Below are positions 18,099 to 19,427 of a stretch of 19,427 nt of DNA, in pieces. Source of the stretch: a virus. The stretch lies in UHGV virus genome UHGV-0123532, one strand, 5' to 3'. Positions within the stretch are counted from its first letter, which is position 1. Each line of letters opens with the position of its first letter. The notes under the pieces were generated by a model. That model saw only the letters and a program-made list of their open reading frames with translations. It was not told where the DNA came from and did no database searches. Both the position numbers and the translations under genes were made by a program.

Positions 18099-18449
18099 TT
18101 ATAAATCAGCCTGTTTAATAAAACTTTGCCCGCGAAGCAGACGATCAACCGTGCGAAGTGCTTCGTATAATGTGAAATCCTGCCCGAAGTGATTGTCGCC
18201 GCAGTTCAATGCAAAAATGCGGTTTCCGGTAAACGGATTGCGTGGGCATTTGTGGACCACGATTCCAGCTTTCTCAATCAGCCAGGCATGCTCGCCGATT
18301 TGTTTTACAGCGTGGCCATCCGGTGTTGCGTGCGTCTCGTTCAGGTTATAGCGACTGTTACTACGTGATGCACTGGTAGCGACGTGGTGTACATGGCGTT
18401 CTACGCCATTACGAAATTTGGAGTATGGATTATTAGCGTTTTTTTTCAT
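18099..18449 (-). CDS. hypothetical early-operon protein (116 aa)
   Basis: ORF from track in operon context. Confidence 0.5.
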   Translation of the reverse strand: MKKNANNPYSKFRNGVERHVHHVATSASRSNSRYNLNETHATPDGHAVKQIGEHAWLIEKAGIVVHKCPRNPFTGNRIFALNCGDNHFGQDFTLYEALRTVDRLLRGQSFIKQADL

Positions 18450-18470
18450 GATGGTGCTCTGTTCATTGTT

Positions 18471-18674
18471 TTAGCTGTTAGCCAAAGCGTCTTTTAACAT
18501 CGCCACAAGGTTTACTTCAGGCTTTTCCATTTTGGCGCGTTTGGGGCGGATAATAATTCGACCGTCAGCCAACATCTTTTTGCATGTATTAAGAGGGATA
18601 CCTGTTATCTCTGCATATTTCTGCAGGGATACATAGGGGGCATTCACATTGATATTGATGGTTATACCTGACAT
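18471..18674 (-). CDS. cox: Cox-like small HTH protein (putative excisionase/switch regulator)
   Basis: APYVSLQKYAEITGIPLNTCKKMLADGRI resembles the P2 Cox N-terminal region (AIPYQEFAKLIGKSTGAVRRMIDKGKL) as remembered; early-operon position. Confidence 0.5.
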   Translation of the reverse strand: MSGITININVNAPYVSLQKYAEITGIPLNTCKKMLADGRIIIRPKRAKMEKPEVNLVAMLKDALANS

Positions 18675-18690
18675 CCCACTAGCCTCCTGA

Positions 18691-18897
18691 TCAGGAAGAT
18701 TTGTTTTGTTCTTTCTGGGTTAGCTCTAGGCCGCGAAGGAAGATCATGCGCGCCATGTTAGAGGATGAGCGTTGTTCTTTAGCTGCCATTTCATCAATGA
18801 CGGCTCGCTCCTCGAGGGACAGCCGAAGTGCCAGTCTTGGACCTGTGGCGGTGTTACGCGGAATGCGTGATCTGGTATCGTGAAGAACTTGTTTCAT
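18691..18897 (-). CDS. ribbon-helix-helix-like small regulator, first gene of the early operon
   Basis: PRLALRLSLEERAVIDEMAAKE is an Arc/CopG-like RHH signature; no strong RBS. Confidence 0.45.
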   Translation of the reverse strand: MKQVLHDTRSRIPRNTATGPRLALRLSLEERAVIDEMAAKEQRSSSNMARMIFLRGLELTQKEQNKSS

Positions 18898-18934
18898 AGT
18901 GGTATATTGTGATCATCTAATAGCTCGTGAAATC

Positions 18935-18963
18935 ATTTTGGTATCAAAAAAGATACCTGTCAA
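18935..18963 (-). promoter_or_regulatory. early (lytic) promoter with operator palindrome in the spacer
   Basis: Minus strand TTGACA (18958-18963) - 17 nt - CAAAAT (18935-18940); the spacer is the inverted repeat GGTATC-AAAAAA-GATACC (18940-18957). Confidence 0.5.
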
Positions 18964-18972
18964 GGTTTTTGT

Positions 18973-19377
18973 ATGAAAAATGATATTGGTCAGCGGTTGC
19001 GTGAGGAAAGGGAAAGATTGGGACTTAGTCAAGTTGCCATGAGCGACATTGGTGGAGTCAAAAAGCTAACTCAGCTTAGATATGAGAAAGGAGATAGCTT
19101 TCCTGATGCTGCGTATTTGGCAGCGCTGTCTCGTTTTGGCCTTGATGTTCAGTATGTTGTGTTGGGAATTCACTCACCTGAAACTTATAACGATGATGAG
19201 CAGGAGTTGATTACTCGCTTTCGAGCAGCTTCGTTAGATGTGAAAAACGCGGTGATTGGGGCTTTAAAAGGTGCGATCAGTGAAAAGGAAACTCAGCCAT
19301 CAGGACGTGAGTTAAATATTTCTGGTGGTAAAAACCGTATCGCTGGTCGTGACTATAACGAAACTAAGGGTAGGTGA
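18973..19377 (+). CDS. XRE-family HTH transcriptional repressor (immunity repressor, C-like)
   Basis: N-terminal HTH QRLREERERLGLSQVAMSD; transcribed divergently from the early operon. Confidence 0.7.
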   Translation: MKNDIGQRLREERERLGLSQVAMSDIGGVKKLTQLRYEKGDSFPDAAYLAALSRFGLDVQYVVLGIHSPETYNDDEQELITRFRAASLDVKNAVIGALKGAISEKETQPSGRELNISGGKNRIAGRDYNETKGR

Positions 19378-19392
19378 TAGTAGGGAGGTGAC

Positions 19393-19427
19393 ATGGCCGT
19401 CAACTCAAACGGTTCAAACAATCGCGT
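19393..19427 (+). CDS. 5' end of an ORF running off the window (MAVNSNGSNNR...)
   Basis: ATG at 19393 preceded by GGGAGGTG; only 11 codons visible. Confidence 0.3.
   Translation, partial: MAVNSNGSNNR

Follow-up and report, generated by a model that had tools for sequence, protein, structure and literature searches.

How does a temperate phage hold lysogeny, and leave it, with only 75 bp between its repressor gene and its early operon? The question is raised by the window (the whole stretch of 19,427 nucleotides that was analyzed), which is 98% identical to Escherichia phage 520873 (Peduoviridae, Xuanwuvirus). The genome is P2-like: the repressor gene lies on the int side, and the early operon, with a Cox-like gene and replication genes, is transcribed away from it; the order annotated for relatives is integrase, repressor, Arc-like protein, Cox-like protein and, further along, replication endonuclease. 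Taking the explanation developed below as a whole, we consider it very likely that a P2-like E. coli prophage (Peduoviridae, Xuanwuvirus-type), integrated adjacent to yecA, has its lysis-lysogeny switch in the window. Judged by gene order and promoter layout, this switch is an ordinary, so far uncharacterized member of the P2 type. A palindrome within the early promoter is a standard design; the details are new for the present phage group. The genes flanking the switch are the following:

18973–19377, plus strand: 134-aa immunity repressor gene (ORF), on the int side of the switch, encoding a predicted, variable N-terminal XRE-type helix-turn-helix (HTH)
18691–18897, minus strand: first early gene, encoding a 68-aa Arc-like ribbon-helix-helix protein (full-length match to PHROG_3431 "Arc-like repressor", E 1e-28)
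18471–18674, minus strand: second early gene, encoding a 67-aa Cox-like protein of the excisionase/repressor family (PHROG_575, E 1.2e-27)

The PHROG_3431 match places the Arc-like protein in the Arc/MetJ ribbon-helix-helix group; its Pfam matches to RHH_1 and RHH_5 were below threshold. The gene is annotated in phage 520873, and diverged homologues hold the same position in phages of E. coli, Yersinia, and Arsenophonus. The Cox-like annotation is present in NC_049344; BLASTP detected no similarity of this protein to P2 Cox or 186 Apl.

The early promoter and its palindrome

A sigma-70 scan of positions 18400–19427 returned a single site (TTGACA-17-CAAAAT, 10 of 12 matches), which lies on the minus strand and encloses an inverted repeat:

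18958–18963, minus strand: −35 box TTGACA of the early promoter Pe (promoter scan), abutting O1, about 9–10 nt from the repressor ATG
18935–18940, minus strand: −10 box CAAAAT of Pe, its first base pairing with the outer G of O1
18940–18957: predicted primary operator O1, GGTATC-AAAAAA-GATACC, with the core GGTAT-N8-ATACC and an A/T-rich center

With its 17-nt spacer, Pe falls within the sigma-70 type (−35 and −10 boxes separated by 16–18 nt), the −10 box matching the consensus at just four of six positions. It is predicted to be the strong early promoter that drives the Arc-like, Cox-like, and replication operon, with a transcript starting near 18928 and running leftwards. O1 is composed of GGTATC (18940–18945), AAAAAA (18946–18951), and GATACC (18952–18957). 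It is the sole copy of GGTATC-N6-GATACC with zero mismatches in the 19.4-kb window and was also called as inverted repeat I2. The original prediction had described this arrangement correctly: the 75-bp gap (18898–18972) agrees with the ORF starts at 18897 (minus strand) and 18973 (plus strand), the near-consensus early promoter is the only site found by the scan, the perfect inverted repeat fills its spacer, and the distance of 10 bp to the repressor start codon corresponds to the 10 nt from the −35 edge at 18963 to the A of the ATG at 18973.

When the 75-bp region was shuffled by dinucleotides, 15% of the shuffles contained a perfect 6+6 inverted repeat whose arms were 0–10 nt apart (7% for arms 4–8 nt apart). 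Shuffled controls for the promoter scan gave a mean of 1.5 promoter-like matches, compared with one in the real sequence. Furthermore, GGTATC is over-represented in the window (18 copies, 5.3 expected). Because of these rates, neither the palindrome nor the promoter match is significant in a single sequence, and the significance of the palindrome therefore rests on comparative data.

Co-variation of palindrome and recognition helix

The same geometry, each time with its own palindrome, was found in at least eight repressor lineages. In the lineages compared, the palindrome fills the 17–18-nt spacer of a minus-strand promoter whose −35 box lies 0–12 nt from the repressor start. The operators of the other lineages read as follows:

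Gilliamella and Pectobacterium: GGTATA-N6-TATACC
Yersinia: GGTATA-N6-CATACC
Arsenophonus (L011): ATTTGC-N8-GCAAAT
Pseudomonas (L012): ATGGGTAG-N4-CTACCCAT
L093: GAGATC-N4-GATCTC
L094: GGAA-N6-TTCC
L096: ATGACTACA-N2-TGTAGTCAT
L097: AGTCAAGATATCTTGACT

The place of the Pe −35 box is taken by TTGAC(A/T/G) or a near match in the lineages examined (e.g., TTGGCT in Arsenophonus L011 and, read by eye, TTGCAT in L096). The homologous −10 boxes, at a spacing of 17–18 nt, read CATAAT, CAGAAT, CACAAT, AATAAT, CATACT, TAAAGT, and TATATT, invariably with A as the second and T as the sixth base.

The core GGTAT-N8-ATAC(C/T) is kept in 42 distinct modules, each of which adjoins a repressor with the helix V[KRQ]KL[AT]Q[LIM]. 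Throughout this class, the repressors carry VKKLTQL or a near variant, although they are only 53–63% identical overall. An alignment of 12 lineages revealed a different recognition helix together with a different palindrome in the other operator classes. The palindrome type tracks the recognition helix and not the type of the first early gene: a GGTAT operator can be accompanied by an Arc-like or by a Ner/Cro-like first early gene, and four different palindromes were found next to Arc-like first early genes. In a reverse test, 61 of 120 matches to GGTAT-N8-ATACC-N-GTCAA in IMG/VR lay directly upstream of a repressor of this family. In the diverged phages L060 and L062, which have the same immunity, positions 18940–18979 are fully conserved (100% identity to the window); for most of the 40-nt blocks on either side, from 18460 to 19427, identity is about 72–95%. 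By alignment, changes of the palindrome O1 in the Pe core spacer thus go along with changes in the recognition helix of the 134-aa HTH protein encoded next to it.

An exchangeable immunity cassette

Heteroimmune E. coli phages have near-identical flanks, in which exactly the operator and the repressor are swapped. In a block-wise comparison (40 nt) of L094 with the window, identity is about 100% between 18340 and approximately 18780 and 80–95% in the next blocks up to 18940; it drops to 22–62% across 18940–19340 and returns to 88–100% from 19340 onwards. The left junction of the exchanged segment is a short linker between two conserved blocks:

18922–18934: variable linker, left junction of the cassette (alignment)

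The cassette spans approximately 18922 to 19340, and the alignments indicate that O1 and the adjacent 134-aa protein are exchanged together between heteroimmune phages. In a reading that assumes recombination at two fixed linkers, the conserved block TGGTATATTGTGATC is the left-hand linker and the conserved tail coding for RIAGRDYNETKG the right-hand one.

The claim that repressor binding blocks the lytic promoter is supported by these comparisons, namely by the recurring geometry, the tracking of the helix, the cassette swap, and the layout shared with P2 and 186, from which we infer such a role for O1.

The repressor protein

The predicted recognition helix of the 134-aa repressor is GVKKLTQLRYEKG (about residues 28–40). 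The C-terminal half contains a conserved helix at about residues 75–105 and the conserved tail NRIAGRDYNETKG. The protein matched PHROG_8 "transcriptional regulator" (E 2.5e-14), and all Pfam HTH matches were below threshold (HTH_31 with 23.3 bits vs. 27, HTH_19 with 20.0 vs. 30.2, HTH_3 with 19.1 vs. 23). The best solved relative is the N-terminal domain of P22 c2 (E 0.011). A pairwise comparison with P2 C gave 33% identity over 46 aa (E 5e-5), and BLASTP against 186 CI yielded a dubious 39-aa stretch in the C-terminal tail only. The P2 C structure (at E ≤ 1) and the 186 CI domains were absent among the PDB matches. The protein falls outside the P2 C repressor family (about 99 aa, binding direct repeats), its predicted operator being an inverted repeat, and outside the 186 CI family (about 190 aa, with N- and C-terminal domains). 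The single-sequence AlphaFold model had a pLDDT of 44.5, too low for a comparison of folds.

No Pfam match to Peptidase_S24 was found in the 134 aa, which sets the protein apart from the self-cleaving LexA/lambda CI type. Since the RecA-cleavage domain is lacking, induction cannot proceed by autocleavage. No credible LexA/SOS box was detected within the window. A counterpart of the RIAGRDYNETKG tail is present at the N-terminus of a membrane protein encoded by the following gene; the two share the motif NR(I/V)AGRD(Y/F) and co-vary. A Pfam search with this membrane protein returned no family. The resemblance hints at an undescribed partnership between the repressor and the membrane protein, which could control induction.

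A candidate second operator

A weaker match to O1 overlaps the start of the repressor gene:

18970–18987: O2, candidate weaker second operator, TGTATG-AAAAAT-GATATT, overlapping the repressor start codon

Its center is located 30 bp (about three helical turns) from that of O1, with which it shares 8 of 12 positions. In all 42 modules of the GGTAT class, the best 5+5 score at +28 to +36 was between 7 and 9 out of 10 (mean 7.83); control windows had a mean of 4.55, and just 4.4% of them reached 7. The consensus is nGTATG-N-ATATC, and the position of the ATG within O2 shifts in some lineages. Second sites of this pattern also occur in Arsenophonus (11/12 at +31), Pseudomonas (13/16 at +34), and L093 (8/12 at +34); in L094, L096, and L097, representing three operator classes, an equivalent was looked for and not found. 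Part of the conservation reflects inheritance and protein constraint, because O2 lies within coding sequence and the ribosome-binding region and the 42 modules are related to one another. In the repressor gene, codon 4 is almost always NAT, codons 2 and 3 are A-rich, codon 5 alternates between Ile and Thr, and ATAYC is kept. An operator written into the start codon and the first five codons would explain the pattern at codons 2–5. The extended reading, in which a two-site operator brackets the −35 box with O2 in repressor codons 1–5, the cassette of Pe core, O1, O2, and HTH domain is portable as a unit, and a partnership between repressor and membrane protein is hinted at, is put forward tentatively and is somewhat doubtful as a whole.

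Other sites in the vicinity were considered as well. GGTAT-type half-sites had been reported near the promoter, and they are present as GGTATC at 18874–18879 and GGTATA at 18901–18906; the position 18872 quoted for the first is off by 2 nt. Their use as extra repressor sites is not supported by comparison: the 18874 site is replaced by GGTGCT or GGTGTC in phages whose operator is the same and whose repressor is 93–94% identical. Moreover, both half-sites persist in heteroimmune phages whose repressors are specific for other sequences, and variants at 18901 keep TGnTATATT, not GGTAT. A distal operator within the Cox-like gene (18585–18602, 10/12; 18651–18668) was also rejected. The sequence there encodes a conserved G-I-P-L-N-T motif, comparable scores were obtained for the Arsenophonus phage, whose repressor recognizes ATTTGC, and the same-immunity phages L060 and L062 lose the matches by synonymous changes.

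The repressor promoter and the role of the early proteins

A standard scan of 18400–19427 found no promoter on the plus strand, and a relaxed scan gave at least two candidates for the repressor promoter Pc, at 18903 and 18931. Two elements of the upstream region bear on the choice:

18898–18921, plus strand: conserved block AGTGGTATATTGTGATCATCTAAT, containing TGgTATATT at 18900–18908
18962–18965, plus strand: probable Shine-Dalgarno sequence AAGG of the repressor gene (read from the sequence), overlapping the Pe −35 region

TGgTATATT is probably the extended −10 box of Pc and is the best candidate for it. Transcription would start near 18915 and proceed rightwards, and the −35 box would be GTGAAG (18880–18885), inside the Arc-like gene. 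The invariant TG of this putative −35 box is explicable by a conserved His codon of the Arc-like gene. The block is near-invariant wherever the first early gene is Arc-like, including heteroimmune phages and Arsenophonus, and a constant 42–43 nt separate the Arc-like start from O1. The variants TGATATATT, TGTTATATT, TGGTACATT, and TGGTATGTT retain TGn, the A at position 2, and the T at position 6; in L073, the A at position 2 is lost. This conserved TGnTATATT occupies the place of 186 pL and P2 Pc, in a region with a second candidate at 18931 and without a scan-grade match on the plus strand.

The probable Shine-Dalgarno sequence, which is clearer in relatives (e.g., AAGGAGG in Pseudomonas L012), implies a leadered repressor mRNA beginning upstream of O1. 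A leaderless mRNA from TTGGTA-17-TGtCAAGGT is disfavored, as relatives have a clear Shine-Dalgarno sequence between the −35 box and the ATG.

With the same operator and repressor, Pc could instead be divergent and lie back-to-back on the Pe −10 box, with TTGTGA (18908–18913) as −35 box, TGaAATCAT (18931–18936) as −10 box, and a start inside O1 near 18943. A single dimer on O1 would then shut both promoters, resulting in simple negative autoregulation without transcriptional interference. In the relaxed scan, this 18931 candidate scores as high as the one at 18903, its −35 box is part of the conserved block, and hexamers resembling a plus-strand −10 box lie over the Pe −10 box in Gilliamella (TGtTAAATT) and several Arc-type lineages. 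Against this, L060 and L062, which have the same immunity, do not preserve its −10 partner, the stretch being variable linker there, and the characterized relatives P2 and 186 use face-to-face promoters placed like the 18903 candidate. We therefore regard the divergent arrangement as unlikely and favor a Pc next to the Arc-like start codon.

The Arc-like protein is probably a Cro-like counter-repressor. Since its gene is the same in heteroimmune phages, the immunity-specific operator cannot be a site of this protein as well. One of the two early proteins, Arc-like or Cox-like, may use the AGTGGTATATTGTGATCATCTAAT block as its operator.

Proposed mechanism and alternative functions of the palindrome

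In the proposed mechanism, a dimer of the 134-aa repressor on O1 would exclude RNA polymerase from Pe, which would maintain lysogeny and confer immunity to superinfection. The weaker O2 probably takes a second dimer, so that two dimers would bracket the −35 box and allow cooperativity and autoregulation. The 5' end of the repressor mRNA probably lies upstream of O1, at the Pc with its extended −10 box beside the Arc-like start codon. Pe and Pc would be oriented face-to-face as in P2 and 186, with transcript starts about 14 bp apart, and active Pe would interfere with Pc. Repressor bound to O1 would relieve this interference; at high occupancy of O1 and O2, it could block its own transcription. 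The Arc-like protein would probably act in the role of Cro or Cox at the conserved block over Pc.

Alternatively, the palindrome could be bound by the Arc-like or Cox-like protein or by a host factor, serving as an autoregulatory site of the lytic phase. The early proteins are predicted DNA binders, and the operator of P22 Arc sits between the −35 and −10 boxes of its target promoter. Nevertheless, L094 has Arc-like and Cox-like genes that are about 100% identical to those of the window, and the N-terminus of the L093 Arc-like protein is nearly identical, yet both have an entirely different palindrome and repressor. GGTAT palindromes are also present in phages without an Arc-like gene, and there would be no reason for a host factor to require its own site in each phage lineage of one host. 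This assignment is thus very improbable.

Still less credence is given to an RNA hairpin in the repressor mRNA leader that would affect stability or translation in place of a DNA site. O1 would be transcribed from an upstream Pc, the complementarity of the arms is kept in every lineage, and the arms of O2 (GGUAU/AUAUC) would pair with a G-U wobble. In contrast, folding of the leader (18915–18995) gave z = −1.14 relative to shuffles, and the O1 hairpin was absent from the minimum-energy structure. The 5-bp arms show no compensatory changes across the 42 GGTAT modules and the "loop" varies freely, which is the pattern of sequence-specific recognition by a protein; in addition, the −35 and −10 boxes of an opposite-strand promoter enclose the repeat in every case. 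Finally, a functionless chance feature of an A/T-rich intergenic region, which the 15% shuffle rate and the abundance of GGTATC would allow, is effectively refuted by the position-specific recurrence in at least eight lineages, the 100% conservation, and the co-variation of helix and operator.

Comparison with characterized switches

The phage belongs to the same family as P2 and has the same order of int side, repressor, switch, and early operon with a Cox-like gene. In the annotated P2 record, the −35 box of Pe overlaps the start codon of C, with O1 in the spacer; here, too, TTGACA of Pe is close to the repressor ATG, and the predicted operator fills the Pe spacer. By sequence, this is the P2-type layout (−35 box at or next to the start codon, operator in or around the Pe core). 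In P2 and, with Pc placed as proposed, also here, the repressor mRNA must read through the operator, and the HTH region of the 134-aa protein is weakly similar to P2 C. Heteroimmune relatives of P2 likewise differ mainly in repressor and operator (PMC1904268, PMC3448106). In contrast to P2 C (99 aa), which binds two 8-bp direct repeats flanking the −10 box (PMC2995052), the predicted sites here are an 18-bp inverted repeat and a candidate second copy across the −35 box, and the C-terminal half of the 134-aa repressor is unrelated to P2 C. The intergenic region comprises 75 bp instead of 114 bp in P2, which places the inferred transcript starts about 14 bp from each other, compared with about 35 bp in P2. 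Moreover, the Cox-like gene is second in the operon, behind an additional Arc-like gene.

The lysogenic promoter of 186 is activated by relief of transcriptional interference (PMC5001618; record annotation). With 186, the switch shares a repressor on inverted repeats over the lytic promoter, which is predicted here, and the geometry of the Pc candidate: in the annotated record, the −10 box of pL lies just before apl and its −35 box inside apl. However, 186 CI has 192 aa (134 aa here), an oligomerizing C-terminal domain, three sites at pR, and the distal sites FL and FR; a distal site searched for in the present phage was unsupported, and no CII/pE establishment module is evident beside the switch.

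Resemblance to the lambdoid repressors (P22 c2, 434 cI, lambda CI) includes a predicted HTH of the XRE/Cro-CI type, with P22 c2 as the closest solved structure, an 18-bp symmetric operator, a probable pairing of a strong site with a weaker neighboring one, and the overlap of operators with promoter elements. The operators of P22 and 434 are two-fold symmetric with an A/T-rich, largely non-conserved center. Differences are the S24/RecA-cleavage domain of the lambdoid repressors, which is missing here, the tripartite OR between back-to-back promoters as opposed to two predicted sites bracketing one −35 box, and the Arc-like nature of the probable early counter-repressor. At Pant of P22, the site of Arc is centered in the promoter spacer, RNA polymerase is sterically excluded, and the opposed promoter is affected indirectly. 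The position of the repressor site in the promoter spacer is comparable; P22 Arc is a ribbon-helix-helix tetramer, whereas the spacer site described here is assigned to an HTH protein, with the site of the Arc-like protein probably located elsewhere.

Conceptually, the gain is small: the P2/186 layout appears to tolerate a palindrome-binding XRE repressor in place of a direct-repeat-binding C protein. In practical terms, operator, promoter, and cassette boundaries would make homo- and heteroimmune P2-like prophages predictable by sequence, and the same knowledge would allow the design of virulent or inducible derivatives. At least eight predicted sets of repressor, operator, and promoter are candidates for compact, possibly orthogonal genetic parts.

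The literature on Xuanwuvirus, P88, and P2-like switches contained nothing on a GGTAT-N8-ATACC operator, and apart from one record, no description of the control of this immunity type was found in the literature searched or the phage collection; the P88 paper concerns tail fibers. The immunity type itself was detected in 524 of 5,426 complete E. coli genomes, that is, in about a tenth of them.

Layout of the switch region

Escherichia phage 520873 (Peduoviridae, genus Xuanwuvirus) shares 98% identity with the region, which was found in 524 of 5,426 complete E. coli genomes. The annotated order is yecA, integrase, DUF2511 protein, membrane protein and HTH protein, and divergently Arc-like protein, Cox-like protein, DUF4761 protein and, further on, a replication endonuclease. 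The relevant elements are:

18471–18674, minus strand: gene of the Cox-like protein (67 aa)
18691–18897, minus strand: gene of the Arc-like protein (68 aa)
18900–18908, plus strand: TGgTATATT, candidate extended −10 of the repressor promoter Pc
18940–18935, minus strand: CAAAAT, predicted −10 of the early promoter Pe
18940–18957: palindrome GGTATC-AAAAAA-GATACC, putative operator O1
18963–18958, minus strand: TTGACA, predicted −35 of Pe
18970–18987: TGTATG-AAAAAT-GATATT, candidate second operator O2
18973–19377, plus strand: gene of the repressor (134 aa)

The repressor matches PHROG_8 (E 2.5e-14), with sub-threshold Pfam HTH matches, and its closest solved relative is the P22 c2 N-terminal domain (E 0.011). 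Pfam search detected no S24 peptidase domain in it, its single-sequence AlphaFold model could not be used, and no LexA box was found in the window. The 67-aa protein matches PHROG_575 ("Cox-like excisionase and repressor", E 1e-27) and the 68-aa protein PHROG_3431 ("Arc-like repressor", E 1e-28). In the RefSeq record of E. coli AR_0013, the Arc-like gene is left out and a 45-aa antisense "hypothetical protein" (18746–18883, plus strand) is annotated; the Arc-like gene is backed by the phage 520873 record and the PHROG_3431 match. A recognizable Shine–Dalgarno sequence was not seen when the sequence upstream of the Arc-like gene was read.

The sequence of 18300–19427 and the ORF listing confirmed the predicted 75-bp gap between the divergent start codons (18897 and 18973). 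The palindrome of the original prediction is the sole zero-mismatch match in the window and was also recorded as inverted repeat I2. The proposed early promoter was recovered as well (17-nt spacer, 10 of 12 matches), as the only site in a promoter scan of 18400–19427. Since the palindrome lies between the two hexamers, it fills the Pe spacer; 9 nt separate the −35 hexamer from the repressor ATG.

In a single sequence, neither the palindrome nor the promoter match is statistically remarkable. A perfect 6+6 inverted repeat occurs in 15% of dinucleotide shuffles of the gap, and the shuffles contain about one promoter-like match, the same as the real sequence. GGTATC is present in 18 copies across the window compared with 5.3 expected (0 of 200 dinucleotide shuffles reach 18), mostly within coding regions and probably as Gly-Ile codon pairs; due to this excess, isolated GGTATC "half-sites" carry less weight.

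Putative operator and repressor across lineages

Binding of the repressor to the palindrome, which would block the early promoter as originally proposed, is well supported by comparison, namely by the layout, the match of helix and palindrome, cassette exchange and the conservation footprint. Relatives of the repressor were sought in one genome per species and in IMG/VR, and their upstream regions were read. The layout was the same in every lineage: a TTGAC(A/T/G)-type −35 (near match TTGGCT in Arsenophonus) on the opposite strand, 0–12 nt from the repressor start, a −10 at a distance of 17–18 nt with A at position 2 and T at position 6, and a spacer occupied by an inverted repeat of lineage-specific sequence.

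Inverted repeats in the Pe spacer and second matches to the lineage's own O1 pattern (score, offset from O1)
Gilliamella, Pectobacterium, Yersinia: GGTATA-N6-(T/C)ATACC; second match see text
Window: GGTATC-N6-GATACC; TGTATG-AAAAAT-GATATT, 8/12, +30
Arsenophonus: ATTTGC-N8-GCAAAT; AATTGC-N8-GCAAAT, 11/12, +31, ranking just below O1 in 6 kb
Pseudomonas: ATGGGTAG-N4-CTACCCAT; ATGGGTAC-N4-TTGCCCAT, 13/16, +34
L093: GAGATC-N4-GATCTC; 8/12, +34
L094: GGAA-N6-TTCC; not found
L096: ATGACTACA-N2-TGTAGTCAT; not found
L097: AGTCAAGATATCTTGACT; not found

In protein alignments, the helix GVKKLTQL.YEKG is common to all GGTAT-class repressors, the overall identity of which is only 53–63%, and it differs in each other operator class. 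Within the compared sequences, the palindrome type is independent of the first early gene. GGTAT operators are found with Arc-like genes (E. coli, Yersinia) and with Ner/Cro-like HTH genes (Gilliamella, Pectobacterium), and four different palindromes were found alongside Arc-like genes. In the reverse test, a search of IMG/VR with the DNA pattern GGTAT-N8-ATACC-N-GTCAA gave at least 120 matches; among the matches listed, 61 of 120 were directly upstream of a family repressor with the helix V[KRQ]KL[AT]Q[LIM]. New sub-lineages among them have other central spacers, for example, CCAAAAGG or TCAAATGA, and the recognized core is therefore taken to be GGTAT-N8-ATACC.

A function of O1 as an RNA hairpin is not supported: the folding z is −1.14, the minimum-energy fold does not contain the hairpin, and compensatory arm changes were never seen within a class. 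Two IMG/VR copies of the window-type switch are rare natural variants: the right arm of O1 is GATATC instead of GATACC in L036, and one T is missing from the Pe −10 region (CATTTGG) in L045. Mutation of the operator or promoter could explain them, as could sequencing errors.

Cassette exchange

From 18340 to ~18780, the heteroimmune locus L094 matches the window at approximately 100% identity, and from 19340 on at 88–100%, but across 18940–19340 at only 22–62%; the heteroimmune L093 is similar. What is swapped is therefore a single immunity cassette that comprises the Pe core, the operator and the greater part of the repressor gene, and whose left junction is located directly after CATCTAAT (~18921; alignment A2). 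L060 and L062 share the operator of the window and a 93–94% identical repressor in a diverged backbone. Most 40-nt blocks of 18460–19427 are 72–95% identical in these two loci, with still lower values left of 18460. The segment 18940–18979 shows 100% identity, a value that only one other block in the region reaches, and the 13 bp directly left of it (18922–18934) are the most variable intergenic part.

In L061:1241–1560 (IMGVR_UViG_2778261154_000006), an L093-type repressor gene is directly followed by a window-type one. The junction lies in the middle of O1 (...TAGCGAAAGATACCTGTCAAGG...), leaving the right arm of the palindrome alone; this locus may be a double-immunity recombinant.

A probable second operator over the repressor start codon

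When each lineage was scanned for its own O1 pattern, a second match appeared over the repressor start codon, 30–34 bp from O1, in the lineages indicated in the table. For each of the 42 distinct GGTAT-class modules, the highest 5+5 score between +28 and +36 was 7–9 of 10 (mean 7.83; consensus nGTATG-N-ATATC), compared with a mean of 4.55 in control windows, only 4.4% of which reached 7. The position of the start codon within O2 is shifted in L202, L181, and L151; at codon 5, either Ile or Thr is encoded, with ATAYC kept in both cases. Protein constraint alone therefore does not account for the conservation. O2 is probably a real second operator, in which case the −35 hexamer would be bracketed by two dimers three helical turns apart.

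A distal site in the Cox-like gene (18585–18602, 10/12) was discarded. It codes for the motif G-I-P-L-N-T, decays via synonymous changes in L060 and L062, and has a comparable score in the Arsenophonus phage, whose repressor recognizes a different sequence.

Half-sites and the conserved block at 18898–18921

The two GGTAT-type half-sites suggested as additional repressor sites did not hold. The one at 18874 sits within Arc-like codons; GGTATC is changed to GGTGCT in L060 and GGTGTC in L062, both with the immunity of the window, and is unchanged in the heteroimmune L093. The one at 18901 (GGTATA) is part of the block CATA(G/A)TG(G/T/A)TATATTGTGATC. The block is near-invariant where the first early gene is Arc-like, even with strongly diverged Arc-like proteins, and Arsenophonus keeps it although its operator is ATTTGC. 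Its variants (TGATATATT, TGTTATATT, TGGTACATT, TGGTATGTT) have TGn and T-A-x-x-x-T in common, not GGTAT. Neither of the two sites is therefore an immunity-specific operator half-site.

The block TGGTATATTGTGATC (18898–18921) is near-invariant in L010, L011, L066, L093, L094, L104, L118–L123, L148, L161, L177, and L183, where the Arc-like start codon and O1 are a constant 42–43 nt apart, the strong divergence of the Arc-like proteins notwithstanding. The block could serve as the extended −10 of Pc, as an operator of the Arc-like or Cox-like protein, or in both roles. Short direct repeats lie on either side of the Arc-like start (18867–18944): TCGTGAA at 18878 and 18925 (spaced by 47 bp), GTGATC at 18867 and 18909 (42 bp), and TCATAGTGGTAT/TCATTTTGGTAT at 18894 and 18933 (39 bp). 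A GTGA...GTGA pair with 18-bp spacing recurs in several related lineages. These repeats could be boxes for the Cox-like protein.

Candidate repressor promoter

Relatives have a clear Shine–Dalgarno sequence between the Pe −35 and the ATG (e.g., AAGGAGG in Pseudomonas), and the repressor mRNA is therefore expected to be leadered and to start left of O1. The best, albeit unproven, candidate for Pc is the extended −10 TGgTATATT with a start near 18915; its −35 would be GTGAAG (18880–18885) within the Arc-like gene. The promoter scan of 18400–19427 detected no plus-strand promoter, and a relaxed scan also scored TGaAATCAT at 18931 as a plus-strand −10 candidate. A conserved His codon accounts for the TG that is invariant in the putative −35, and in L073 position 2 of the candidate −10 is not an A.

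The annotated records of P2 and 186 have the geometry proposed here. In P2, the Pe −35 overlaps the start codon of C, the Pe spacer contains O1, and Pc is near cox; in 186, the pL −10 is located directly before apl and the −35 inside apl. With starts near 18928 (Pe) and 18915 (Pc), the promoters would be face to face with a transcript overlap of ~14 nt, tighter than in P2 (~35 nt) or 186 (62 nt).

Relation to known switches

The switch resembles those of P2 and 186 in its predicted working and in genomic place. The repressor has only 33% identity to P2 C over 46 aa of the HTH, the solved P2 C structure was not among its PDB matches, and its operator is an inverted repeat, whereas P2 C binds direct repeats. 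It is thus not of the P2 C family in the defining sense, nor is it a 186 CI. In its DNA recognition, it looks most like P22 c2 or 434, with a symmetric 18-bp site and an A/T-rich centre. BLASTP aligned repressor residues 98–134 (19264–19374) with residues 145–183 of 186 CI (L219) at 44% identity across 39 aa (pairwise E 2e-4); this alignment may reflect a remnant of common ancestry or be spurious.

P2-type and 186-type switches have been described, and "other" regulatory regions were noted in P2-like phages (PMC3448106, PMC5285337, PMC13026187, PMC5694545). No characterization of the window-type switch was found in the literature searched. It is an uncharacterized member of a well-known kind of switch, to which the operator core, a probable O2 that overlaps the repressor start codon, and the limits of the cassette are modest additions.

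Repressor tail and downstream membrane protein

The most unusual observation lies outside the immunity switch itself. The conserved C-terminal tail of the repressor, GGKNRIAGRDYNETKG, recurs N-terminally in the directly downstream 216-aa membrane protein (MAVNSNGSNNRVAGRDFHEKN...), for which no Pfam family was matched. Both were compared in the window (19324–19427), L002:6994–7644, L010, L012, L066, L093, L094, L096, L097, L003, and L009, and they co-vary across lineages: NRVAGRDYNE/NRVAGRDYYE in Pseudomonas, GQISAGNIYNN/EQVAGENIINVY in Gilliamella, and GQFAGNQIINN/GQFSSRDIINIH in Pectobacterium. The motif found in both proteins may indicate an interaction or a shared partner with relevance to induction.
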